Shown: positions 5,042 through 63,687, numbered from the stretch's first letter. The stretch is 64,000 nt of DNA from Patescibacteria group bacterium (GCA_041738615.1 JBGSPL010000001.1:226164-290163); one strand, 5' to 3'. Program-made: numbers and translations. Notes: generated by a model not told the origin, from the letters alone.

Positions 5042-5977
5042 TTAATACGTGGCGATTTCCAAATTCGTAAGTCCTGATCTTAATGTAATGTCATATTTGG
5101 AAAGACTAGACTCATAGTTGGCACTTTTCTTTTCCATCTCCCCGTTTACAACCTGGGAACCGCCAGGAAAGCTAATGTTGGTAAGACCGCTATTCGAGAC
5201 TGCCCTGTACCCCACATCCTTAGGAACCAGGAGTTTGTAATTTGAAGCGCCACTTTCAATCTCTATCTTGTGAGCGCCATTTTCGGACCCCAGTCTGATC
5301 TGCGAGTTCACAGCTCCGGACTTGACTACTAACTTTTCTAATCTGGCTTTACTAAAATCGAGTTTTTCATTTGCAGCACCGCTGCGCAAAGTAACCGTTA
5401 GGGGCAAATTTCGATTGACTAAGATTTTTACGCTCCGTTTGGATACGTTCCTCGGTATTACAAGAGGGTCAAAGTCTGCCCTTCTGCTGCCCTTATCAAT
5501 TTCTGAGATTACTAACTTTGCCACTCCATCGGTAATGTCCCTACTTACACTGATGCTACCAGTCAAGTTTCTACCCTCGACAAAAACATCGTCAACTAAG
5601 CTTTGCTCTTCTGTCATCTCGTGGACATCCAGAGCCACTGCGCCGGTGTCCACAGTGAGTTCAATTCTTTTTTCGAGAGCTTCCAATCTCGTCTGAGTAG
5701 TTTGTACGGTGTCCTTTTGATTGGTACCCACCAAGCCCAGCTGTGAAGGTTGGTACAAGGCGGCTGCAAAAGTTCCTACTAGGACCAAAAAGCCAACCGC
5801 GGCAAAAACCCAGCGGTCTTTGAGGATGAAATTTAAACCGAGAAGGATTAATGCCACTGGCCAAAGAGTAATTAGCACAACTAGTGCGCTCTCTGATACA
5901 TAGCCACCTGAGACAGCCAGGTATGTGCATCCTAGTAATATCCAGAAAATTCCCCAGAGAAGTCTTCCTGATTTCAT
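5042..5977 (-). CDS. membrane protein with DUF4097/LiaG-like putative adhesin beta-strand domain
   Basis: 311 aa. N-terminal TM helices (LLWGIFWILLGCTYLAV, VVLITLWPVALILLGL). C-terminal repetitive beta-rich region (VTLRSGAANEKLDF...GSENGAHKIEIESGASNYKLLV). Confidence 0.6.
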   Translation of the reverse strand: MKSGRLLWGIFWILLGCTYLAVSGGYVSESALVVLITLWPVALILLGLNFILKDRWVFAAVGFLVLVGTFAAALYQPSQLGLVGTNQKDTVQTTQTRLEALEKRIELTVDTGAVALDVHEMTEEQSLVDDVFVEGRNLTGSISVSRDITDGVAKLVISEIDKGSRRADFDPLVIPRNVSKRSVKILVNRNLPLTVTLRSGAANEKLDFSKARLEKLVVKSGAVNSQIRLGSENGAHKIEIESGASNYKLLVPKDVGYRAVSNSGLTNISFPGGSQVVNGEMEKKSANYESSLSKYDITLRSGLTNLEIATY

Positions 5978-35340: not shown

Positions 35341-35431
35341 TTCTGTCTCCTTTCTTGTGCCCACGCGATGGCAATGGGCGGTTATTAGGTACCAGATCAA
35401 CCAAGCTCCCTGTCCCACGTGAAACAAAAAA

Positions 35432-38778: not shown

Positions 38779-38788
38779 TTGATCATAA

Positions 38789-38904
<116 letters not shown>

Positions 38905-39030
38905 AGTAGTGTGCATCACAAGGAGACACACTACTGTCTGGAAACTAAAAGTTTCCAGAATATAATGAATGAAAGGTACGAATTGCCAGTCAACACTTTA
39001 TACTCAGCACGAATGCCGAATATAAAGTTA

Positions 39031-42076
<3,046 letters not shown>

Positions 42077-42356
42077 TCGTTCATTTTAGCATTTGAGTAA
42101 CTCTTTGGATTTGTTGTTCTTACGAACAACGGGTCTTTTGAGTTAATTTTTTTGTCTTAACATTGCAATAATGTTATTTAATGACCGTTGACTGGCAGTT
42201 CATAACTGCCATTCGTTTACCCTATTTTCTACAAATAGATTTACTTTGGGATTTCAATCTATCTGGTATTCACTTGTCAAAGTTCATATCCCTTTCGGGT
42301 ATGTGCCTCCGAGCAAGCTCGTTGGCACGTATCCGATTGTGATTTAGGCTTTAAAA

Positions 42357-42385
42357 AAACCGCCTTGTTTGGCGGGACGTCAGCA
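42357..42385 (-). terminator. possible terminator after the AT-rich membrane-protein gene
   Basis: Minus strand CGUCCCGCCAAACAAGGCGG plus UUUUUUUAAAG. Confidence 0.4.
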
Positions 42386-42507
42386 CAATTATAACTAGAC
42401 GTTTACAGTTTCCCGCATTTCTTAGCTAAATATTGTGTTATCATCGTCCCCATCCCTATTAGTGACTTGAAAATTGTATCAAATATATCAATTGTATGCA
42501 AGTGTTT

Positions 42508-43239
42508 TTATGTGGAAATATTCATATCAGGATTTGTAACTGGATCATGTGAATTCTGAAGAAATTGAACAAACCTGTTACCTTTTTCGGTAAGGCTAAC
42601 ATTAAATCCATCATTAGCGATCAAATTAGAGCTTTGCAAGGCGTTAATGATGGCTATTCTTTCTGCGGCCTGGTTGTTAATCTCAGGAGGTAAATAAAAT
42701 GTAGCATAAAATTCTCGAAGAGAAGTATTACCTGAAAGGAACGATATTAAGGCACGCTTCGAATTCATCACCAGAAAACCATTTGCTAAATAGTAAAACT
42801 CATAACGTTCCACGTTGTTCGAACCACTAACGGCGACCGAACTTTCTGATACGCCTTCGGTTGTTCCAGCCTCAGTCTGGGTAATTGTACTTAAAGAATA
42901 CTGACGACCCGCCTTATCAACCCAAGTAAGTTTATTGGTATTTTTCAAAAAGTTTTCAATTGGCAAGGCAAATTTTGTTAGAATTATCAACATAATTGTA
43001 AAAAAGGATAGCGGCCAAGAGTTCATAACCACAATGAGTATCTCCTTGAACGATAACCATACCCGAGAATCTATACTTGTCAAAAAATCTAATATGTTCC
43101 TGCTAAACAGGAAGATAATAAACAAGAGAGTTATAGTAAATGCGGCTTTGTCTTTCATGGGTACTTTATACTCTAAATGATTAAAAATGTCTACCATGTT
43201 CCAAAAATATTCCGGACAAGTTTTTCTGCCGTGAAACAT
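42508..43239 (-). CDS. hypothetical membrane protein (AT-rich gene)
   Basis: 243-aa ORF, about 33% GC, two TM helices near the N-terminus. No motif recognised. Confidence 0.45.
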   Translation of the reverse strand: MFHGRKTCPEYFWNMVDIFNHLEYKVPMKDKAAFTITLLFIIFLFSRNILDFLTSIDSRVWLSFKEILIVVMNSWPLSFFTIMLIILTKFALPIENFLKNTNKLTWVDKAGRQYSLSTITQTEAGTTEGVSESSVAVSGSNNVERYEFYYLANGFLVMNSKRALISFLSGNTSLREFYATFYLPPEINNQAAERIAIINALQSSNLIANDGFNVSLTEKGNRFVQFLQNSHDPVTNPDMNIST

Positions 43240-43252
43240 TTTTGTTTCACAA
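43228..43252. repeat. 25-bp repeat copy 1 containing palindrome GTGAAACA-TTTT-TGTTTCAC
   Basis: GCCGTGAAACATTTTTGTTTCACAA, identical to 47695-47719. An extra GTTTCAC half-site follows at 43255-43261. Confidence 0.7.
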
Positions 43253-43352
43253 TTGTTTCACGCTACCAGGGTGTCAGCCACAATCTGTATTTTTTGCTAT
43301 CCATGCGGTATAATCACACTGTTTCTCACATATCTGCGACCTGGAGGTCATC

Positions 43353-43886
43353 ATGTACCAGAGACTTGTCCGTAGTTCGGACGTACCTATCACCGATGCG
43401 CAGAGGAAGTCGCTCGGCAACTGGGCCTTGGTCCGCTACTTCGGCTGGGGATTCGGACTCATGATCGTCCTGATACCCCTCAACTTCGTGGCCGTCCTCA
43501 TCAACCGGCTACTGGGACGAGCAATCCCTCCGAGCGGGGTTTGGTTCTACATCGGAATGATTCCATTCTGCCTGGTTTCGGCTCTCGTCGGCACCTACGC
43601 GCACTACCGCATCCGGCAGCTGCCGTGGTGGCGCGCACCCGAGCCAACTGAGACAGAGAAGGCGAGGGACACGTACCAAGACACGGCCGGTGACGTCTGG
43701 ATCGGGTTTGGTATCGCCTTCTTCGGTACAATCGCCGGTCTCTTCTCCGGCGTCTACTGGTTCTACCTCGCTATTCCTGCTGGAGCCGGCTGGAGCTGGC
43801 TTGTCTACAAGTCGGCCAAGGCGCAGTACCAGGAGTATCTGAGGTTGAAGCAGGAAGAACAACGGGTCCCCACTGCCGCTACGTAG
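43353..43886 (+). CDS. high-GC hypothetical membrane protein (4 TM)
   Basis: 177 aa, about 60% GC in a 45% GC context. SD GGAGGT 5 nt upstream. GC-rich hairpin plus T-run terminator at 43895-43960. Confidence 0.55.
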   Translation: MYQRLVRSSDVPITDAQRKSLGNWALVRYFGWGFGLMIVLIPLNFVAVLINRLLGRAIPPSGVWFYIGMIPFCLVSALVGTYAHYRIRQLPWWRAPEPTETEKARDTYQDTAGDVWIGFGIAFFGTIAGLFSGVYWFYLAIPAGAGWSWLVYKSAKAQYQEYLRLKQEEQRVPTAAT

Positions 43887-43991
43887 CGGTCAACGCGCCC
43901 AAGGCGCACGCAAGAGTACTACCGTACGACGGCGCTGCACTTTGGGCGCCTTTCGTTTTTGCCCTTACATAATCATGAGACTCCATGACCT

Positions 43992-44039
43992 TGAAATATT
44001 TACTCCCCCACATACGTATTACAATTACAGGCGTATAAT
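43992..44039 (+). promoter_or_regulatory. promoter region of ECF sigma gene: ECF-type TGAAAT-N17-CGTA plus TATAAT 6 nt before the ATG
   Basis: TGAAAT at 43992-43997 and ACGTAT about 16-17 nt downstream resemble the SigW/SigE-type TGAAAC-N16-CGTA. TATAAT at 44034-44039 leaves only 6 nt before ATG 44046 (leaderless). Confidence 0.4.
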
Positions 44040-44045
44040 CTATTT

Positions 44046-44615
44046 ATGAGCAAAGAAAAAGAAACTGATGAACAACTAGCGGTAATGCTCCAAAAAGGCA
44101 ATAAAGATGCCTTTGGGCAACTTATCGACCGCTACGAACCCGCTCTCCTGCGCTATACTCACCGCCTACTTTCTGACCAAGATGCCGCTGAGGACGTCAC
44201 ACAAGAAACTTTCCTCAAGTCCTATAGAGACATCCAGGGTTTTGATCCAAATCGAAAGTTTAGCTCGTGGCTTTATCGTATAGCCCATAACCAAGCTATA
44301 GACGCTATCCGCAAAAGGAAAGGTACGGTAATACTAGAAGAGGCAGAGAGTATCGCCTCAGAAGAAGATATACACGACGATATCCAGAACAGACTAGACA
44401 AGAAGCATCTGAGAACCAAGCTAGATACCGCTATCGCCAAGATACCCACGAAGTACCGTGAAACGGTGATACTACGCTTCTATGAAGAGAAAGAATATGA
44501 CGAGATTGCCGAGATACTCCACCTTCCTATTGGTACCGTCGGAACATATATATCTAGAGCAAAAGCAGAACTGAGAAAACAATTAACTGAAATTAATATA
44601 GAGGATTACCTATGA
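44046..44615 (+). CDS. ECF (sigma-70 family, group 4) sigma factor
   Basis: 189 aa with region 2 (DVTQETFLKSYRDIQGF...SWLYRIAHNQAIDAIRKRK) and region 4 (REKEYDEIAEILHLPIGTVGTYISRAKAELR). Confidence 0.85.
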   Translation: MSKEKETDEQLAVMLQKGNKDAFGQLIDRYEPALLRYTHRLLSDQDAAEDVTQETFLKSYRDIQGFDPNRKFSSWLYRIAHNQAIDAIRKRKGTVILEEAESIASEEDIHDDIQNRLDKKHLRTKLDTAIAKIPTKYRETVILRFYEEKEYDEIAEILHLPIGTVGTYISRAKAELRKQLTEINIEDYL

Positions 44616-45103
44616 GCGAGCTAAAGAACAAACTTTTGAAAAAAATCGAGAGCGAAGACCTGAAGATGAGGTCACGTGGCTTTTTTGTCTTTACTCGGGC
44701 CCTTATCGAGATTGCGCTAGTAGCGATATTGGTAGCTACCATATATCTAGTAAACCTAGCGATCTATTTGCCCAAACGAGGACTAGGACCCATTCGACCG
44801 CAAGCATTCCGGATAAATATGTTGCTCGATATAGTACCTTGGCACTATCTGATCTTCGGAGCTATCGGACTAGGGGTTTCTTTTTGGCTGCTATACAGGT
44901 TCACCGGAACCTACAAGAAACACTATCTAGTAATGGTGGCTGTAGTATCAATACTAGTACTATTATCTGGGGCTCTACTCGCCTTCAGCAATCTGAATGA
45001 ACGATTCGAAAACAGACCACATATGCGCGGCCTCTACATGATGGACGATCCTAGGCTTGGACCTGGCAGAGGTATGGGACCAGGATTCAACAGATTGAAA
45101 TAA
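44612..45103 (+). CDS. putative membrane anti-sigma factor (translationally coupled to the ECF sigma)
   Basis: 163 aa. Start overlaps the sigma stop (ATGA). Two TM segments. C-terminus RGMGPGFNRLK. Confidence 0.55.
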   Translation: MSELKNKLLKKIESEDLKMRSRGFFVFTRALIEIALVAILVATIYLVNLAIYLPKRGLGPIRPQAFRINMLLDIVPWHYLIFGAIGLGVSFWLLYRFTGTYKKHYLVMVAVVSILVLLSGALLAFSNLNERFENRPHMRGLYMMDDPRLGPGRGMGPGFNRLK

Positions 45104-45169
45104 ATTCCATCGGCGCACCGTATTATATATAGAGGTGCACACTCTAAAGAAACTAATCAAGGAGAGACA

Positions 45170-45676
45170 ATGAATAAGAAACAAATAATCGCCGCAACAG
45201 CCCTAATAGCTGGAATCGGTCTAGCAGGAGCCTACGGCATCCAAACAGCAAAAGCTGCTACCGACACAAATAGCTTCCCACCGATGATTCAAAAAATGGT
45301 AGAGAAATTCAATCTAAACACAGACGAGGTTTCGAAATTTGTAAACGAAGATCGAGAAGCCAGACAAACAGAACGAGAAGCTGACTTTGAGAAGAAACTT
45401 GCTGATGCAGTGACTGCCGGCAAGATCACAGAAGCTCAAAAGACAGCTGTCCTCGCCAAGCACGACGAACTGCAAACGAAGAGAGAAGCTCTAAGAGACC
45501 AGAACAAGGAAGATAGAGAAGCTCATCGTACAGAGATGCAGGCCATACACACTGAGATGCAAGATTTCCTAAAAGCCCAAGGTATCGACGAATCAGTCTT
45601 GCCTACACCAAAAGGTCCACAAGGTGGTGGAATGGGAATGGGCGGCGGCATGCACCGCGGTTTCAACCGACAATAG
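45170..45676 (+). CDS. secreted LTXXQ-motif (CpxP/Spy/ZraP-like) protein with Gly/Met-rich C-terminal tail
   Basis: Signal peptide MNKKQIIAATALIAGIGLAGAYGIQTAKA. KITEAQKTAV is LTxxQ-like. Tail GGGMGMGGGMHRGFNRQ. Confidence 0.6.
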   Translation: MNKKQIIAATALIAGIGLAGAYGIQTAKAATDTNSFPPMIQKMVEKFNLNTDEVSKFVNEDREARQTEREADFEKKLADAVTAGKITEAQKTAVLAKHDELQTKREALRDQNKEDREAHRTEMQAIHTEMQDFLKAQGIDESVLPTPKGPQGGGMGMGGGMHRGFNRQ

Positions 45677-45692
45677 GAACTGAATATACTAA

Positions 45693-45725
45693 AGAGCTCT
45701 ACGGAGCTCTTTTTTTGTGGCGAGA
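45693..45725 (+). terminator. rho-independent terminator of the sigma module
   Basis: AAAGAGCUCUACGGAGCUCUUUUUUUG. Confidence 0.75.
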
Positions 45726-45858
45726 AATTATATCAAATCTACCCGATAGGCAGAAGTTTTTTGTTAACGAGCATTATATACAAAATGTGAAAAGCCCCGC
45801 AGGGCGTTTCAGTAACGAAACGTCCTTTGGGGCGCATTAGTTGGATACGGAACAGCCT

Positions 45859-46524
45859 TTACTGTGGCTGTTCTTCTATGACTGGTAACCTGGCAGGAAG
45901 ATCCGGATTTGCCTTAAAGAACAAGGAAAGCCAGATCGCGAATGAGACAATGACGAGGATGATAAAGATCATCCCCCAAATCATGTACAGTTTGCTGTTA
46001 CGCTCTTCCCTTCTCTCTCTCGCTGCCTCCAACCTCGCGCTTTTGGCCCGGGCTGCCTTTTCGGCTGGAGTGGAGTAGTGCCAATGGGGTTGATGTGAGA
46101 TTCCTCCGCTGTAGCTACCAGCGGGAGCCGAGCCCCCACTGGTGCCACCAGAAGGAACGTAGTCTCCTCCGTAATTCCCGTAGGAACCAGACGGAGAGTA
46201 GGTAGATCCTCCACCAGCAGCCGGACTAGACGAACCGTCGGGCGGTCTATCCAGACGAGCAGCCACAGAACCAGCCACCGAAACACCGTACTCGGTACCG
46301 CTTCGGCTATCCCATGGCATTTGAGCCACATACTCCGAGTGGCCACCGGGTGAGGTTACCGAAGTGTTGCCAGCGAAGTTGGTACTGACGCTAGCAACCT
46401 CTTTGCCAACACCCCCAAGTAATCCTGGTTCGTGCACGGAGACGCTGCCATCTATCTTCTCAATGCCAACGCTCGTGACGTTGCCGAAGAAATCCTTCGT
46501 TACGGTCTTATCTCCCCATGCCAT
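45859..46524 (-). CDS. high-GC hypothetical protein, Gly/Ser/Tyr-rich with C-terminal TM anchor
   Basis: Start at ATG 46524 (MAWGDK..., SD GGAGGTG 6 nt upstream). About 60% GC. Low-complexity GGSTYSPSGSYGNYGGDY. One TM near the C-terminus. Confidence 0.5.
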   Translation of the reverse strand: MAWGDKTVTKDFFGNVTSVGIEKIDGSVSVHEPGLLGGVGKEVASVSTNFAGNTSVTSPGGHSEYVAQMPWDSRSGTEYGVSVAGSVAARLDRPPDGSSSPAAGGGSTYSPSGSYGNYGGDYVPSGGTSGGSAPAGSYSGGISHQPHWHYSTPAEKAARAKSARLEAARERREERNSKLYMIWGMIFIILVIVSFAIWLSLFFKANPDLPARLPVIEEQPQ

Positions 46525-46735
46525 CGTGAGCACCTCCAACCTTCTTGTCCAAGGAACATATAATGATTGGCGTATTTATACCACGAAAAGGAGTAAATTG
46601 CAAGTCTACAAAAGGCCATTGATCTTACCACGGACAAGATTATTCTGTTCAAAAAGGAAAACTTGTGCTAGAATGCTCGCACGTAATGATGGTATGGCCA
46701 CAAGTGGCTGATTTGACAACTAGATTGGAGCTGGC

Positions 46736-47599
46736 ATGGACACTGAACTGCTAGACGTCACTGATTTCGAGCGCATCGGTGGTGGAAAGACCAAGGACAT
46801 CTTCCTCGACCCTTCGTTCCGAGGTTACGTTCTCATCCGAAGCCGCGACGACATCAGCGCCGGAGACGGCGCCCGCAAGGACACCATGACCGGCAAGGCC
46901 GAACTCGCCACGACGACGACCGTGAACAACTTCCGCTATCTCGACTCTTGCGGCATCTTCAACCACTACGTCGCTGGGGTCGTGGACCCGGTAACCTTCC
47001 GGGCTCTCGAGTGCACACCGATTCCGATCGAGTGCGTCGCGCGCCGGTATTCGGCAGGCGGCTCGTATCCCAAGCGCGTTCCCGGCATTCCCGTCGGCCA
47101 CCGCTACGACCACCCGGTCGTCGAGATGTTCTGGAAGCAGGACGTCGGCGAGTACACCGATCCGTTCATGGTCTTCGATGCCAAGAAGGGGTTCTTCGAG
47201 CTTCACCCGGCCCAGGAGCCGACTACGGCAATGAACGTCCTGTCGACAATCGCAGCGAACGAGATCCCTGGCTTCGAGAAGTTCGCTGACCCACTCCAAC
47301 TGATCGCGACCATGGAGATGATGACCGACAGAGCCTTCTGCGCCCTCGAGAGGGCCTACAGGATGGTCGCTCTCACGGTCGTCGACATGAAGATCGAGTT
47401 CGGACTCGACAACGCGGGCGACGTCACGATCATCGACGTCATCGACGCCGACTCGTGGCGCGCCTGGGTCGACGGCGACCCGGAGAAGGCAGTCGACAAG
47501 CAGTTCTTCCGGGATCACCCGGACGAGCCGGCCGACACCTCGCTCCCCGCCTATCGCTACGTCGCCGAGAAATCCGCACAGATTCTCGAGCTGCCCTAG
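46736..47599 (+). CDS. purC: phosphoribosylaminoimidazole-succinocarboxamide (SAICAR) synthase, long form (high-GC gene)
   Basis: 287 aa with GGGKTKDIF, MTGKAELATTTTVNNFRYL, IPIECVARRYSAGGS and VVDMKIEFGLDNAGDVTIIDVIDADSWRAW. About 62% GC. Native-looking AT-rich promoter (TGCTAGAAT) upstream. Confidence 0.85.
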   Translation: MDTELLDVTDFERIGGGKTKDIFLDPSFRGYVLIRSRDDISAGDGARKDTMTGKAELATTTTVNNFRYLDSCGIFNHYVAGVVDPVTFRALECTPIPIECVARRYSAGGSYPKRVPGIPVGHRYDHPVVEMFWKQDVGEYTDPFMVFDAKKGFFELHPAQEPTTAMNVLSTIAANEIPGFEKFADPLQLIATMEMMTDRAFCALERAYRMVALTVVDMKIEFGLDNAGDVTIIDVIDADSWRAWVDGDPEKAVDKQFFRDHPDEPADTSLPAYRYVAEKSAQILELP

Positions 47600-47622
47600 C
47601 GGCATCAAGCAGCCATCACTAC

Positions 47623-47656
47623 GAAGGGGCGGTTTCCAATTGGAAACCGCCCCTTC
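47623..47656. terminator. perfect 14-bp stem terminator between convergent genes
   Basis: AAGGGGCGGTTTCC-AATT-GGAAACCGCCCCTT, followed by CTGCTTTT. Confidence 0.8.
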
Positions 47657-47694
47657 TGCTTTTATAGAGATAATAGCCTCGAATACATATAATG

Positions 47695-47719
47695 GCCGTG
47701 AAACATTTTTGTTTCACAA
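47695..47719. repeat. 25-bp repeat copy 2 (same as 43228-43252)
   Basis: GCCGTGAAACATTTTTGTTTCACAA. Lies between two terminators in a convergent intergenic region. Confidence 0.7.
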
Positions 47720-47783
47720 AAGCAAAGAGCCCACGAATTCAGATGAATCGTGGGCCCCCGCTTTGACTTGAATCTGGGTGCTG

Positions 47784-48186
47784 CTACGCGCTGAGCAGCA
47801 TCCTTGCGTCCGGGCTGTTCTGGGTGAGTATCTCGAGGACAGAGGTCGCGAGCATCGGGTCGTCGGTGACTACAGTGACGGTACCGTCGCGGCACAGAAA
47901 GAGATCGGCTACCTTGCCGTAGATCCTGAGATTCGCGTACTCGGTTGGGCCGACGTGAACCATACGCGCCTCGTACTCGGAGTCGATGACGTAGCCCTCG
48001 GCCTCCCAGTGATAGTCGATCCCGGCGACGTTGAATGCGTCCGCGATGGCATCCATGTAGCGTCGCCCGCGAAGGTTAACGTAAGCCCTAGCCCTGCCGC
48101 TAAGGAGTCCCATCAAACGACGGGGACCCCTCCCAACACTGAGCTCGAAGCCAGGTGGCAGACCATCCGTGATCGGGAAATGCATG
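47784..48186 (-). CDS. high-GC hypothetical protein
   Basis: 134 aa from ATG 48186 (MHFPITDGLPPGFE..., SD GAGGAGAG). GC3 about 75% on this strand. Hairpin plus U-rich terminator at 47724-47760. The track ORF extends upstream into AT-rich DNA. Confidence 0.5.
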
Positions 48187-48353
48187 GTAGCTCTCCTCTC
48201 ATGTGGCGAACTGGATTCCAGAATGTCAAAGCGAACCTTGAGCAAGGTGGTGACCACCTTGCTTGGGAACGTAATATCATAATACTTTTCAGCGCAAATG
48301 TCAATCCACACCCAGGTGTGCTCTGGTGATTTGCCAACCGAAGTTGGGGAGAA

Positions 48354-49934
48354 CTACTTCTTCTTGGAGCCCTTCCTAGGACGCTTGGCTTTGTGTTCCG
48401 CAACCTGCTTCTTGAGCTTGTTCTCTGTTCGTCTATCCGATACCCACTTGAGGCCCCACAGGGCAGCAACACCGGCGAGTGATGATAAGCCGATAGCTAG
48501 AGCACCGTTTAGCGACGAGTCCGCGGTTTTCTCTGCACCTGTGAACTTTGGATCTACTAAGTTGATTGAAGCGATTTTCGACTTGTCAGACAAAAGCTTT
48601 TGCGCGAGCTCGGTAATCTGCTCTGGATAATCTCGACCAATTTCTGGCAACTGCAAGAGTGCAGATAGCTCTGCGTCCACCCCTTCACCAAGGTCAATCA
48701 GCCCAAACTTCTCTGGCTCTGCCGCGATAGCAGCTACGAGCTCTTTAGCAATCCATTGGGCGCCCCCTCGGTAAGAAAACTCGGAATATTCCGAGGATCC
48801 CCAATCTAAAATCCGCGACAGTGAAGCCGACTTTTTCTCGGTAAACATGAGCTCCCCGAGCATACCCATAGTTTCGTCACGGACACCCTCGGCAGATTGG
48901 GCCTGCATAAGCTCCAGGGCGCTCGTGGCAGCCGCTACCTGGTCCAACCCTAGCGTCTCCTCGTTCTGATAAAACAAGTGCCCCATTTCGTGTGCCACAA
49001 CTCTGGTAGGCACCTCTACATCAAAATCTTGAATATAACTCTCGGAAACAAATGAACCGAGCTGCATAGCTAGCACTTGTCTTTCCTCTACTGTCTTTCC
49101 TGCCTGCATTATCTTTTCCGCTCGACTCTGAATATCGAGTAAGCCCTCTGACCCTATTCTCTCCTTGGTCTCCTGTATTTGTTGCTTCTTCTCGGCGGCC
49201 TCGGTGTCAGCACCTTCTTTGTAGATAAGGACCGACTTGTATCTAGTTTGCCCTTCTAGTGGGGCCGTTGTCTTCACGCTGCTGATGCCCTCGCCATCGA
49301 GTACTAGTGGGCCGATATTCACAAGCGGAACCATCCTATCGCCGACTGCTGTCTCCACTACCGTATGCTTTGCCGACTCTACACTAAAGAAATTTGTGAT
49401 AACCCCAAAATAATCCTTGCCGGTTTCATCTGCGGCGATGGCCAAGACAGACTTGGCAAAGATGCCATACTGAGCCATTGCCTCTGGGAATCTTCGCTGC
49501 ATCACTTGTTTGTACTGTTCGGGACTAAAAGGAGTTTCTTCGTGCAAGACTTGTGCGACTGCCTGGTAAGCATCCTCGTGTGCTGCCGTTTGTTCGGCTG
49601 TAGGGGTCACAAATCCTGCGACTGTCTCCTGGCTATCGGCCATACCATCTGCAGCCACTAGCCTCTGGTATTCTTCTATCGCTGCTATCGCACTTTTTGC
49701 TTCTGCTGTTATCGGCTGCTGTTCGACCGCAAAGTCGATTGGCTTCATGGTTTCTTTGATATTCTCTACAATAACTTCATTTCCGCGAAACTCTGTCGAT
49801 GCCTCGGCACTTGTCGGTTTCTCTAGAGCCTCGGCAGCTACTGCCGCCGCTGTGCCGGCAACCCCCTGTAAAAACTGCCTCCTGGTTATTCCTCGTTCAT
49901 CTTCTGCATGATTCTCGGCCATGGTGCGCTCCAC
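48354..49934 (-). CDS. Tat-signal zinc metallopeptidase-like protein (HEMGH) with C-terminal TM anchor
   Basis: N-terminal RRQFLQGVAGTAAAVAA twin-arginine motif. VVAHEMGHLFYQ HExxH. C-terminal hydrophobic helix plus KKQVAEHKAKRPRKGSKKK. Confidence 0.6.
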   Translation of the reverse strand: MERTMAENHAEDERGITRRQFLQGVAGTAAAVAAEALEKPTSAEASTEFRGNEVIVENIKETMKPIDFAVEQQPITAEAKSAIAAIEEYQRLVAADGMADSQETVAGFVTPTAEQTAAHEDAYQAVAQVLHEETPFSPEQYKQVMQRRFPEAMAQYGIFAKSVLAIAADETGKDYFGVITNFFSVESAKHTVVETAVGDRMVPLVNIGPLVLDGEGISSVKTTAPLEGQTRYKSVLIYKEGADTEAAEKKQQIQETKERIGSEGLLDIQSRAEKIMQAGKTVEERQVLAMQLGSFVSESYIQDFDVEVPTRVVAHEMGHLFYQNEETLGLDQVAAATSALELMQAQSAEGVRDETMGMLGELMFTEKKSASLSRILDWGSSEYSEFSYRGGAQWIAKELVAAIAAEPEKFGLIDLGEGVDAELSALLQLPEIGRDYPEQITELAQKLLSDKSKIASINLVDPKFTGAEKTADSSLNGALAIGLSSLAGVAALWGLKWVSDRRTENKLKKQVAEHKAKRPRKGSKKK

Positions 49935-50055
49935 TTATAGCAATATTTTACCCTTCTATATGTAATATTCAAAGCTGTTTGGACAAACTTCTATAAAGCA
50001 AAGTGCCCGCCTCCCACGGGCTACTCTGAAGTAGTGGTGGAAGTACGGGCACGTA

Positions 50056-50667
50056 CTAGGCGGGATCCTTCTGGAAGGTGAGCTGTTTCTCTTGCCCATT
50101 CCAGATTCTCACCCAGTTCTCGCGGTGGAGCCAGATGACCATAGCCCCCATCGCGAATGCAATCACTGCTGGCCAGGTCTCCAGGGTGTAGAGGTAGACC
50201 AATATCCAGAAAAGGCCAGCGATGGCGGTAGAGCCGATGGCAACGACCCTCGTGAGCGCGACTGCGAGCACGAAGATCACGAGCAGTACTAGAGCCACCG
50301 GCCACATCTGGTAGAAGAGCGCTCCAGCTCCGGGTGCGATCCCCTTGCCGCCCTTCCAGTGGAGGTAGAACGGGAAGGTGTGACCAGCGATGACGGACAT
50401 CATGATCAAGAGCATGATGGAAGCTGATGGGTGTTTCAGGACCGTGGCAGCGAGCCACATAGCCAGGATACCCTTGCCGGCGTCCAGTAGAAGGACGGCT
50501 AGCGCCGGCTTCCACCCCAGTACCCGATACACGTTGGTAGCGCCGAGATTACCGGAGCCAGACTCTCTGATATCGGTGCGGTAGAACACCTTACCGATTA
50601 CGAGAGCCCAAGAGATGGTACCGATGGCATAGGCCAGTGCGGCACATCCCACGTAGCTGAAAACCAC
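50056..50667 (-). CDS. plsY: acyl-phosphate:glycerol-3-phosphate acyltransferase PlsY (high-GC gene)
   Basis: GSGNLGATNVYRVLG and LLLDAGKG motifs. Start placed at GTG 50667 (SD AAGGAGGTG 6 nt upstream), because the longer track ORF would overlap fabK. Confidence 0.8.
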   Translation of the reverse strand: MVFSYVGCAALAYAIGTISWALVIGKVFYRTDIRESGSGNLGATNVYRVLGWKPALAVLLLDAGKGILAMWLAATVLKHPSASIMLLIMMSVIAGHTFPFYLHWKGGKGIAPGAGALFYQMWPVALVLLVIFVLAVALTRVVAIGSTAIAGLFWILVYLYTLETWPAVIAFAMGAMVIWLHRENWVRIWNGQEKQLTFQKDPA

Positions 50668-50707
50668 TTGCCCACCTCCTTGGGTGGTAGGAACGATGGT
50701 GCGGACC

Positions 50708-51676
50708 CTACTCGCCTTCGGCAAGAGCTTGGTTCGCGCCTTCGTAGATGCGGTCGACGATGGCAGCTGCAGGCTCGATAGCGTGGATGTGACAGGCCAC
50801 CTGGCCACACATCACACTACCCCACACCGTGTCACCCTGCTTCATCGCTTTCTCGAGGGCGCCGTCACCGAGGGCAGCCTTGCCATCCTCATCTCCGGCA
50901 GCCTCCAGCTCTGCGAAACGTTCCGAGAGTGCGTTCACGAGGACGCGCACGGGTCGATGGCCGATAGCCTTGGGCGTGTATGTGACTGTAGTACAGTCGC
51001 CCTGTGCCGCAACGATCATCTGCTTGACCTCATCTGCGATCTCGGTCTCCTCGGCTACGAGGAAGGCCGTCCCGACCTGAACGCCTTCGGCGCCCGCGAG
51101 GATTGCCTTCGCTGCACTCTGTCCGTCGTAGATACCGCCCGCGGCGATAACCGGGATACGGCCAGCGACAAGGGCGATGATGTCCGACAGGATGTCGAAC
51201 AACCCGTGATTGCCGATGTGACCGCCGGATTCGAGCCCCTCGACGATGAGAGCATCGACCCCAAGCTTCAGCCAGTAGTTGGCCCACTTTACCTCAGCGA
51301 CCAACGGGATCACCTTGACCCCAGCGCTCTGAAGCAAGGATACCTTGTCCTGACGAAAGACGCCGGCGCCAATCGTGACCGCAGTGACTCCACCTTCCTC
51401 GATGAGGACATCAATGAGAGCCTGCGCTTTGACTGCGTCGACTGCCATGATGTTCACCCCAAAGGGCTTGTCGGTAAGACCCTTGATCCTGCGGATTTCA
51501 TCCCGCAGTTCCTCGGGGGTCATTCGACCCGTGGCGATGATGCCAAAGCCGCCAGCATTGCTGACGGCTGCCGCAAGGGTGGCCGTAGAAACACAAGCCA
51601 TCCCTCCCTGTAGCACTGCCTTCGCTATTCCGAGCAACTCGCAGATGCGAGCGCCCCATTCGCGTATTCGTGCCAT
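50708..51676 (-). CDS. fabK: enoyl-ACP reductase FabK-type (NPD/nitronate monooxygenase family flavoprotein, high-GC gene)
   Basis: 322 aa. LLGIAKAVLQGGMACVSTATLAAAVSNAGGFGII, GVNIM, IAAGGIYDGQSAAKAILAGAEGVQVGTAFL. SD GAGGAGAGGAG. Confidence 0.75.
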   Translation of the reverse strand: MARIREWGARICELLGIAKAVLQGGMACVSTATLAAAVSNAGGFGIIATGRMTPEELRDEIRRIKGLTDKPFGVNIMAVDAVKAQALIDVLIEEGGVTAVTIGAGVFRQDKVSLLQSAGVKVIPLVAEVKWANYWLKLGVDALIVEGLESGGHIGNHGLFDILSDIIALVAGRIPVIAAGGIYDGQSAAKAILAGAEGVQVGTAFLVAEETEIADEVKQMIVAAQGDCTTVTYTPKAIGHRPVRVLVNALSERFAELEAAGDEDGKAALGDGALEKAMKQGDTVWGSVMCGQVACHIHAIEPAAAIVDRIYEGANQALAEGE

Positions 51677-51877
51677 GCCGAACTCCTCTCCTCGAGAGCC
51701 AATGGTCTCTAAACTGTCAATGAACCCCCAAGTAATCTATCGTTGGGAATTGGCTGGATTATACCCTAAAACCAAGCTTTATTCAACGAAAATATCGCAG
51801 AAACGCAAACACTCCGCCCCGCAGGCAGTACAACGGAGTGTTATACGCCCGCAAAGCGGAGTGGTAATAGAGGGCAG

Positions 51878-52645
51878 CTATTGAGCAGCCCAGACACGGT
51901 CACGGAGTGTCCGTGCAGCAGTGGGGATGTAGTTCATAGTGATGACATCGGCAGGAAGCTCCAATCCCTCAAAGCAACCTACGCTGCACGCCCGGAGCGC
52001 CATGACACCGCTGAAACCGTCGGCGCTGAGCGCTTTCAGGACATCCGCCCCCTTGATCCCGTCGTCGAGGCAACACTCGGTGAGGACGCCGGCCAGATGG
52101 CAGTCGTGGTGCGTGATGCGCGCTTCCTGAAGACTCGATACGGCGTAGACCGACAGGTCTCCCAGGTATCCGCGATACGCCTCCAGAGCTTCTGCTCGGG
52201 CAACAACCATGACGGCGGGCTTCACCAGCAACTCAAAGACCCCCGGGTGAGCGGTCTTCCAATCACGCCAACGGGTGTACTGGCCCTCCATGCTATCGAG
52301 GAGCTCGAGCAGGGAGAGAGCACTGTGTTCCGCCGGATTCGGGAAGTAGGCAGCGGGGTTCTCCCAGGTGTACTTCTTGTAACACCAGTCGCCCTCCCCC
52401 CTCTTCCAGAAGGTTACCGTGTTGGCGCAGGGCCCACCGATGAAAGTGCCCTGAGGAGTAACCACCTCCATCTCCTTGGCAGTGCTGCCCCAGGCGGGTC
52501 CCTGGCAGATGTACTCCACGAAGGAGCGAATCTGCCTTGCCTCTTGGGCAGTCACTTCAACGGAGCCAGGAAGCAGCGTAGCGATGTAGTCCGGTCTTCC
52601 AGGATCCTTCACAGGGATCCCCAGCTTTACGAGGTGCTCGTGCAT
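51878..52645 (-). CDS. high-GC Cys-rich hypothetical protein
   Basis: 255 aa. GC3 highest on this strand in sampled codons. Hairpin AACACTCCG...CGGAGTGTT downstream. A competing 281-aa plus-strand ORF is judged less likely. Confidence 0.4.
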   Translation of the reverse strand: MHEHLVKLGIPVKDPGRPDYIATLLPGSVEVTAQEARQIRSFVEYICQGPAWGSTAKEMEVVTPQGTFIGGPCANTVTFWKRGEGDWCYKKYTWENPAAYFPNPAEHSALSLLELLDSMEGQYTRWRDWKTAHPGVFELLVKPAVMVVARAEALEAYRGYLGDLSVYAVSSLQEARITHHDCHLAGVLTECCLDDGIKGADVLKALSADGFSGVMALRACSVGCFEGLELPADVITMNYIPTAARTLRDRVWAAQ

Positions 52646-52839
52646 ATTTCTAGCCTTTCTCTCGGCGTAAACTGCAAGTCGACGATATTATACGACGAAA
52701 TACCGCTTTCTACAAGCATAAGATGACACATCGGCGGGATAAGCCTAGTAATGGCAATAACGCAAAGGCTTCACTTTTTTCCTTAATTGGGCTATAATCC
52801 AAGCGGTTCTTTTGTATACATGCCGACACTGGGGGCGCT

Positions 52840-53238
52840 ATGAGCGAGAAACCTTTGACCCGTAGCGACATCGTCAGGGAAGGAAGGTGGCTGCTGATCC
52901 TCATCTGGATCTGGCAAGATGAGGCAGACATCGACAGGTACTTCGAGCTGGCTCGAATTCTCTTCGGGATGATCTTTGTGGAGCACAACACGGGCAAGCT
53001 TGCCGACCCACTGCTCTGTCGCCCGAGTTGGGCAAACCTGCCTCTTGCCAAGGCCGTCTTCGTACTCGCCAAGGCACAAGGATTCCAACGGGGCGAAGGT
53101 AGCCAGCTGGCTACCAAACTCTGCCACGCCAAACATACCCACAACCACTACCCCGTCATCAATCTCATGGTGATACAGGGAGTGCACCCCCGGGTGGCGC
53201 CTCGCCACGTTCCCCATCTCATCGCCTTGGTCGCCTGA
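52840..53238 (+). CDS. high-GC hypothetical protein
   Basis: 132 aa. GC3 about 70% versus GC1 about 55% on plus. Perfect TATAAT at 52786-52791 in the AT-rich upstream region. Competing minus ORFs rejected. Confidence 0.4.
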   Translation: MSEKPLTRSDIVREGRWLLILIWIWQDEADIDRYFELARILFGMIFVEHNTGKLADPLLCRPSWANLPLAKAVFVLAKAQGFQRGEGSQLATKLCHAKHTHNHYPVINLMVIQGVHPRVAPRHVPHLIALVA

Positions 53239-53336
53239 GAACCGCAGCGCCACTGGCGCACAGTCTCCCGCAAAGGAAGCGCCGTGCACCACTGGCGCTT
53301 CATCATTTGTCCAAAATTATGATAAAATATAGCCAT

Positions 53337-53816
53337 ATGAAAACTCTAATCACCTATGCCAGTAAATATGGCTCCACCAAGAAGTGCGCTCAGATGGTAG
53401 CTGCAGGCCTTATCAGTGAAGCTGATCTTGTAGACCTAAAGGAGTCCATCATAGTCGACCTAGATAAATACGACACGGTTGTCATTGGAGGCTCAGTAAT
53501 GATGGGTGTAATTCAGCGTGAGGTCCGCGAGTTTCTAAACAAATACGAAACCAGGCTGCTAGACAAAAAGCTGGGACTCTTTATTTGCAATATGCGGACC
53601 GATGAGGATGCGCAAGCTGAGATCGAGGTTGCCTACCCCAAGATCCTAAGGGATAAAGCGACGGCTGTAGAATACTTTGGCGGCGAACTAAACATGGAAA
53701 AACTGAGTAGATTTGATAAATTTATCATAAAATCAGTTACTAAGGAACGCGAGAATCTCTCTGCCCTACTTGAGCCAAACATAGACCGTTTTATCGATAA
53801 GATGAACCAAACCTAA
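53337..53816 (+). CDS. flavodoxin-like protein
   Basis: MKTLITYASKYGSTKKCAQMVA...VVIGGSVMMG flavodoxin fold. Start at ATG 53337. Confidence 0.7.
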   Translation: MKTLITYASKYGSTKKCAQMVAAGLISEADLVDLKESIIVDLDKYDTVVIGGSVMMGVIQREVREFLNKYETRLLDKKLGLFICNMRTDEDAQAEIEVAYPKILRDKATAVEYFGGELNMEKLSRFDKFIIKSVTKERENLSALLEPNIDRFIDKMNQT

Positions 53817-53884
53817 GAAATTTCCCGACAAAATAACATCCTAAAATTCTATAGAATATTAGGATGTTATTTTACGATAAGTAC

Positions 53885-63611: not shown

Positions 63612-63687
63612 TGGTGGACCCGACAGGACTCGAACCTGCCACCTCCTCAGTGCAAATGAGGCGCTCTACCAGATGAGCTACGGGCCC
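63612..63687 (-). tRNA. tRNA-Ala (anticodon UGC), CCA encoded
   Basis: rc GGGCCCGTAGCTCATCTGGTAGAGCGCCTCATTTGCACTGAGGAGGTGGCAGGTTCGAGTCCTGTCGGGTCCACCA. Cloverleaf with G3:U70 and a TGC anticodon loop. Confidence 0.9.

Follow-up and report, generated by a model that had tools for sequence, protein, structure and literature searches.

What are two identical 25-bp sequences doing on either side of a 4.4-kb segment in the genome of a Patescibacteria group bacterium? The question arises from a stretch of 64,000 nucleotides (GCA_041738615.1 JBGSPL010000001.1:226164-290163), hereafter the window. A preliminary description of this window reported the pair and offered three explanations: an att-like boundary of an inserted element, a miniature inverted-repeat transposable element (MITE) or repetitive extragenic palindrome (REP), or an operator for a dimeric regulator. 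Our analysis points to parS, the universal chromosomal centromere, which is bound by ParB (Spo0J). We consider the repeats to be putative non-canonical ParB-binding sites, which would anchor ParB on this Saccharibacteria chromosome without loading it as a clamp, and we give this reading a probability of about 60%.

Two repeats built from swapped halves of parS

The 25-mer GCCGTGAAACATTTTTGTTTCACAA occurs exactly, and in the same orientation (+ strand), at 43228-43252 (copy 1) and 47695-47719 (copy 2), as had been reported. No further copy was found in the 64-kb window with up to 3 mismatches, and the chance expectation from shuffled sequence is none. Each copy contains a perfect 8-4-8 palindrome, GTGAAACA-TTTT-TGTTTCAC, which agrees with the inverted repeat and 4-nt spacer given in the preliminary description. 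Its 20-bp core lies at 43231-43250 in copy 1 (arms at 43231-43238 and 43243-43250) and at 47698-47717 in copy 2. The third GTTTCAC half-site noticed after copy 1 is also present. It forms part of the 9-mer TGTTTCACG (43254-43262, + strand), which equals parS positions 1-9 and is separated by a 3-bp gap from the core of copy 1. Across the repeats and this third half-site, GTTTCAC or its complement is found at 43231, 43244, 43255, 47698 and 47711. Past the 25 bp, the surroundings of the two copies share no likeness.

The consensus of parS is TGTTNCACGTGAAACA (PMC7022226). The arms GTGAAACA and TGTTTCAC are perfect 8-mer halves of parS, whose perfect form is TGTTTCAC abutting GTGAAACA. In the repeats these halves are intact, their order is swapped and TTTT stands between them, an arrangement that we call everted. 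Because abutting inverted halves, the defining test of parS, are lacking in the 25-mers, we do not file them as parS. What they do contain is intact half-sites, with two perfect 8-mers per copy and the additional 9-mer at copy 1, and they carry the heptamer that characterizes half-parS sites of the Pseudomonas aeruginosa type.

The canonical arrangement, a 16-bp palindrome of abutting halves with about 1-2 mismatches, was found in the window only at 35411-35426, where an intergenic, degenerate site (TGTCCCACGTGAAACA) differs from TGTTTCACGTGAAACA by 2 mismatches. This site is weak taken alone, as at least one such match appears in 30 of 100 shuffles. With the two everted sites it brings the parS-related sites to three, clustered in 12.3 kb next to the 23S-5S genes. 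No other pairing of half-sites exists in the 64 kb (spacings 0-12, up to 2 mismatches), where about 0.27 would be expected by chance per orientation class. Single heptamer half-sites show no enrichment in the window, in which 10 were counted and about 8 are expected.

Both copies are placed outside genes. Copy 1 is intergenic, between the divergent open reading frames (ORFs) 42508-43239(-) and 43353-43886(+), and lies about 1.15 kb upstream of the 23S ribosomal RNA (rRNA) gene. On one side of copy 2 stands the strong terminator hairpin of purC (47623-47656), on the other a hairpin (47729-47755) that comes after the stop codon of ORF 47784-48311(-) in the minus-strand reading, so that the transcription units around copy 2 converge on it. 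The sequence TAGAGA-17-TATAAT (47665-47693), which resembles a promoter, stops 1 nt short of copy 2; in spacer DNA rich in AT it has probably arisen by accident. No Rfam family was found over either copy.

The way in which ParB could use such sites follows from what is known of its half-sites. In the co-crystal structure, one ParB DNA-binding domain contacts one half-site (PMC7383237). For the ParB of P. aeruginosa, and for some others, a single half-parS heptamer (GTTTCAC/GTTCCAC) is enough for binding, which gives narrow peaks and needs no spreading (PMC10419367, PMC7022226). On the repeats, one helix-turn-helix domain of ParB would read one 8-bp half-site. The half-sites would face outward, in the opposite relative orientation and with centres 12 bp apart rather than 8 as in parS, so that the two N-terminal cytidine triphosphate (CTP) gates could not meet as they do on true parS. 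ParB would then sit statically, bound in a sequence-specific manner with no clamp loading or spreading, which we liken to its behaviour at single half-parS heptamers in P. aeruginosa. The role may depend on context. A site placed over a promoter could be an operator for ParB, which the location at rsmG-parAB in Lactobacillales suggests, and sites in a centromere array or along its edge could provide extra anchor or bridging points, as in Patescibacteria. In the window we would have two isolated anchors and one decayed parS, spread over 12 kb near rRNA genes. What we observe directly is the relation of the sequence to parS, its distribution and its conservation; we infer ParB as the binder, its static binding and any downstream regulatory or architectural function.

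ParA and ParB of a cultivated Saccharibacterium, Southlakia epibionticum, are SEML1_0183 and SEML1_0184 (PF02195 + PF17762), and their transposon sequencing score is growth-defect or essential (PMC10633639 supplement).

Recurrence of the everted site in a relative and across phyla

The single relative that covers the region is fairly distant. It is a locus, L028, of an uncultured Candidatus Saccharibacteria metagenome-assembled genome (MAG), whose 23S gene is 99% identical to that of the window. At the corresponding place upstream of this gene (5310-5342), L028 carries the three-half-site motif CCGTGAAACATTTTTGTTTCACAATGTTTCACG, and 33 of the 34 aligned positions are identical between the two. 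The third half-site stands 2 bp after the core in L028; since this gap differs from that of the window, its spacing is not fixed. The flanks of the motif are unrelated on both sides, at the DNA and at the protein level, and homology between the window and L028 restarts only at window position 53882. The orthologous site is conserved, and the motif is an island within a region that turns over. The MAG of L028 holds 2 exact copies of the 20-mer, the other one immediately after gyrA (L029). As the flanks are shared (CC before, AA after), identity over 24-25 bp does not require a recent duplication. We also considered a decayed tandem parS as the origin of the repeats and rejected it: the 8 nt outside the arms match the missing half at 4/8 positions on the left and about 1-2/8 on the right, and the same everted arrangement is kept in L028.

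Other routes to relatives added little. A metagenome scan with the ddl protein gave 4 loci, of which none reached the region and none had half-sites. For the 746-aa neighbour protein, the only homologues retrieved were its own source protein and one 3.6-kb contig. Exact-protein look-ups for synteny returned only 100% identical contigs from SRR28170474 and were uninformative. They derive from a single sequencing run, so the sample behind it contains the same organism. Two Logan contigs from this run (L057 and L058) are 100% identical to window 43927-47652 and about 41980-43951, and their ends fall at terminator hairpins, not at the 25-mers.

We then scanned 185,579 species, with one genome each, for the exact 20-mer. 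It was found at 33 loci, where about 1-5 are expected by chance (estimated from base composition), and these include Firmicutes, Bacteroidota and Patescibacteria. The 20-mer thus recurs across phyla, and its surroundings are clearly not random, as it is associated with par operons and with parS arrays. In 13/33 loci, parA, parB or both lie within 4 kb (tblastn with Vagococcus ParA and ParB).

Ten Lactobacillales carry the 20-mer at rsmG, where a conserved TAnAGT -10 box precedes it by 10-15 nt and the ribosome-binding site follows after 3-10 nt. They comprise four Vagococcus genomes, Enterococcus canis, Eremococcus, Lacticigenium, Agrilactobacillus, a Lactobacillus MAG and Limosilactobacillus. 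The loci that were read through show the gene order rsmG, parA, parB. Neither arm varies among the ten, and relative to the gene the spacer reads TTTT or AAAA. Lachnospiraceae have a full parS followed by TTTT and an extra half-site between rsmG and parA, and a Flavobacteriales MAG has the site ahead of three genes in a row, the last two being parA-parB; in both cases the site stands closely upstream of the par genes.

In other Patescibacteria, the 20-mer belongs to arrays of perfect parS, in which 31-61 bp separate one site from the next. One Wolfebacteria array (L024) consists of 5 parS and 2 everted sites, and a second (L032) of 6 parS and 1 everted site directly beside the DnaA boxes TTATCCACA and TGTGGATAA. 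The pattern is repeated in L025 and L002, from a Liptonbacteria MAG and another Patescibacteria MAG; in the latter MAG, array members are mostly everted, some with a different A/T spacer. In a second Saccharibacteria MAG, two contigs with a 55-bp overlap (L015+L004) join into the order everted-parS-parS-[yraN]-parS-parS-parS-everted. The gene yraN (UPF0102), identified by eye, recurs in or next to the parS arrays of L002, L004+L015, L025 and L032. The array of Wolfebacteria CP011209 has DnaA boxes on its flanks, together with a tyrosine-recombinase-like gene that was likewise identified by eye.

A related arrangement, parS followed by TTTT and a half-site, was seen in about 19 related small elements among IMG/VR contigs (L034-L056, 14-17 kb, sample 3300045988), relatives of which have 2-5-bp spacers. 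In these elements the site directly follows an opposite-strand AGGAGG, and the frame through the site is open only if TGA is a sense codon, which hints at an alternative genetic code. A tblastn search of the elements with the Vagococcus protein gave no match to ParB. A BLAST search of the 41-bp region against plasmids and phages returned short weak matches only. Among these, a 24-nt match in Butyrivibrio phage Arian falls in a predicted promoter between tail genes; it is weak and uninformative.

Relation to known ParB sites and competing explanations

The 25-mers resemble chromosomal parS in that both 8-bp arms are identical to its half-sites, in their low copy number per genome and intergenic position and, in other genomes, in the company of parS arrays and parAB operons. 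They differ from it in their swapped halves, their 4-bp A/T spacer and the lack of a central CACGTG, and they would not offer the geometry that closes the CTP gate. The closest known system is the half-parS sites of Pseudomonas (Kawalek et al., PMC10419367, bioRxiv 10.1101/280743), which share the heptamer with the repeats; static, non-spreading binding by a single ParB domain would be the expected behaviour here too. However, half-parS sites of P. aeruginosa are single heptamers, scattered at about chance frequency with hundreds per genome, whereas the 25-mers hold 2-3 half-sites in a fixed arrangement and very few copies, with full 8-mers conserved and the arrangement recurring across phyla. 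The autoregulatory operators of plasmid par systems provide a third comparison. In Lactobacillales the start of the rsmG-parA-parB transcript falls within the site, as it would in such an operator, while the copies in the window are not beside par genes. In Class Ia plasmid par systems, ParA is the repressor and ParB the co-repressor; chromosomal ParA is without the DNA-binding domain needed for such repression.

More tentatively, and with greater doubt than for the repeats themselves, the everted half-parS pair (GTGAAACA, a 4-bp A/T spacer, TGTTTCAC) could represent a conserved and undescribed second class of ParB site, extending from Firmicutes to Patescibacteria and holding ParB in an open, non-sliding state. 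It might serve as an autoregulatory operator of rsmG-parA-parB in Lactobacillales and as an anchor or boundary in, or at the edges of, oriC-proximal parS arrays in Patescibacteria. The copies in the window would be dispersed members of this class. The mechanisms that control the abundance of chromosomal ParA and ParB are called unresolved in a 2026 preprint (PMC13371061), and our literature search found no ParB operator at rsmG-parAB. If ParB binds, the Lactobacillales site at the start of the rsmG-parAB transcript becomes a candidate operator that sets ParA and ParB levels. The purpose of half-parS binding would also become testable, since half-sites here are not scattered by chance but have a fixed geometry, are conserved from phylum to phylum and form part of centromere arrays. 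Such pairs would further offer a natural substrate to separate sequence recognition by ParB from clamp loading.

Several observations weigh against ParB as the binder. The 20-mer was not found in any paper in our literature search. Neither parA nor parB is present in the 64-kb window (Pfam, tblastn). The window also shows no oriC signal: its GC skew is uniformly negative and it has no cluster of DnaA boxes, so that oriC lies outside the window. Several 20-mer loci lie away from par genes and resemble hairpin terminators, namely in Ruminococcus, in Bombilactobacillus between mecA and spx, and in two Clostridia. Finally, among the matches listed for viral contigs, from which the 4-bp-spacer loci already in hand were excluded, there is no preference for a 4-bp spacer, and most are tandem full parS with 7-12-bp spacers.

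Among the explanations first offered, an operator for a dimeric regulator came closest, although the parS halves in the arms had gone unseen and the protein is likely to be ParB. We consider it unlikely that the site is an operator for some other dimeric regulator, symmetric and with a half-site that matches GTGAAACA by coincidence, and that the copies mark two members of a small regulon. Such a protein would suit the perfect 8-4-8 palindrome, the position of copy 1 in a divergent promoter region, the TATAAT 1 nt before copy 2 and, in Lactobacillales, a position over the transcription start that is typical of a repressor operator. It would nevertheless need an 8/8 half-site match to parS across Firmicutes, Bacteroidota and Patescibacteria, and would have to account for the company of perfect parS arrays and par operons. 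Moreover, copy 2 stands between convergent terminators with no credible downstream gene, and no regulator gene is kept beside the site in both the window and L028. The many copies in promoter positions that the preliminary description had envisaged were not found. That the palindrome acts as a hairpin in RNA or single-stranded DNA, as a stabiliser in the 5' untranslated region, a translational element or a weak terminator, with the parS match being secondary, seems to us rather improbable. The core can indeed form an 8-bp stem with a 4-nt loop (-6.9 kcal/mol as DNA), and copy 1 with the third half-site can form alternative 9-bp stems (z = -4.4). In Bombilactobacillus a T run follows, the palindromes of Ruminococcus and L029 are longer (11-13 bp), and copy 1 is a weak match in a terminator scan. 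The parB of Caulobacter is under post-transcriptional control through mRNA structure (PMC13371061). A hairpin would, however, constrain pairing and not sequence, and the arms are invariant across phyla, with no compensatory change in the ten Lactobacillales. In the window, T runs are missing on both strands of both copies, the promoter-like element of the gene downstream of copy 1 comes only after that copy, and membership in parS arrays would be left unexplained. An intrinsic terminator was rejected, since only 3 pairs of the stem are GC, no T run follows it, and the scan gave a marginal score for copy 1 and none for copy 2.

The two proposals that treat the repeats as parts of mobile or repetitive DNA fare worse. 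If the motif were a crossover point, as in the att-like boundary first suggested or at the edges of a cassette, its two direct copies would flank a 4.4-kb cassette. The 25-bp identity in direct orientation fits this, as do the sharp jump in GC from 37% to 61% at copy 1 and the fact that the motif is the only conserved sequence in a region whose flanks differ between the window and L028; a tyrosine-recombinase-like gene also adjoins the Wolfebacteria arrays (identified by eye from the N-terminal sequence). We nevertheless hold recombination sites to be very improbable. No recombinase was found among ORFs of at least 150 aa in or near the segment, which comprises at least 3 composition blocks whose internal boundaries are without the motif, and composition does not change at copy 2. 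The GC blocks are off the repeats, and what L028 lacks is 43263-53881, not 43253-47694, so that the missing block ends at 53881 and not at copy 2. The segment is not syntenic in all relatives, yet the limits of what is absent differ from those set by the repeats. The motif is also not known to resemble dif sites, whereas its match to the parS halves is exact. For the window, the 25-bp repeats are most likely not the ends of a mobile element. A selfish REP- or MITE-like repeat, or a chance or neutral duplication devoid of function, is hardly credible to us: the sequence is short, palindromic and intergenic, with one copy between convergent genes, but it occurs only twice in 64 kb and twice exactly in the related MAG. 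Half-site heptamers show no excess in the window, the 20-mer is found in unrelated phyla in specific contexts, and the orthologous site is conserved though its flanks have turned over.

Two further candidates were tried and set aside. A SigW-like promoter for an extracytoplasmic function (ECF) sigma factor was dismissed: TGAAAC, like the -35 element of SigW promoters, is present on both strands, but no CGTA/CGTC -10 element lies at 16-17 nt. Saccharibacteria are naturally competent; a DNA-uptake sequence was rejected on the chance frequency of the half-site heptamers (10 vs about 8).

The enclosed segment and the setting of the window

The gene content of the enclosed 4.4-kb segment is as the preliminary description had given it. 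Besides purC (SAICAR synthetase) and a minus-strand, Gly-rich ORF of 226 aa, it encodes two membrane proteins, of 177 and 163 aa, an ECF sigma factor whose gene runs in the same direction as that for the 163-aa protein, and a 168-aa protein that looks secreted. Its GC content runs in blocks of about 61%, 42-46%, 59% and 62%, whose boundaries do not coincide with the repeats. Among ORFs of at least 150 aa in 42.5-57 kb, Pfam detected no recombinase, integrase or transposase.

The segment is only the left part of a larger, variable and mosaic block (43263-53881), which is absent from L028 and ends 6 kb past copy 2. Against a backbone of about 47% GC, the block holds genes of about 60% GC: those for the 177-aa membrane protein, the Gly-rich 226-aa ORF, purC and a 175-aa ORF, together with plsY, an NMO/FabK-like gene and a flavodoxin gene. 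At this position L028 has a different high-GC ORF, acidic and of 188 aa. The block is probably a hot spot of horizontal acquisition, for which high-GC actinobacterial hosts (Actinobacteria) are possibly the donors.

Within the segment, the ECF sigma gene (44046-44615) is preceded at a distance of 28 nt by a SigW-like promoter, TGAAAT-N17-CGTA (43992-44018), which is plausible, from its sequence, as an autoregulated ECF promoter. The ECF sigma gene overlaps that of the 163-aa membrane protein, which is probably an anti-sigma factor.

The window as a whole contains 23S and 5S rRNA genes with no adjacent 16S gene, and housekeeping genes that include ftsA/ftsZ, nrdD/nrdR, infB, rpsA, sortase, ddl and murF. 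The 23S/5S genes are on the minus strand (38788-42074), and a tRNA-Ala(TGC) gene (63612-63687) lies 21.5 kb upstream on the same strand. The usual spacer tRNA is tRNA-Ala(TGC), and the layout looks as if about 21 kb of protein genes, among them ddl, murF, plsY and purC, had split an rRNA operon.

The ORF to the left of copy 1, 42508-43239(-), is of low GC and encodes 243 aa, with N-terminal membrane segments and a winged-helix-looking C-terminal stretch; it has no Pfam match. Its longest reading begins within the palindrome of copy 1, and a promoter-like TTGACA-16-TATGGT lies inside it at 43083-43056, so that its true start is uncertain. In L028, five unrelated small genes stand in the place of this ORF.

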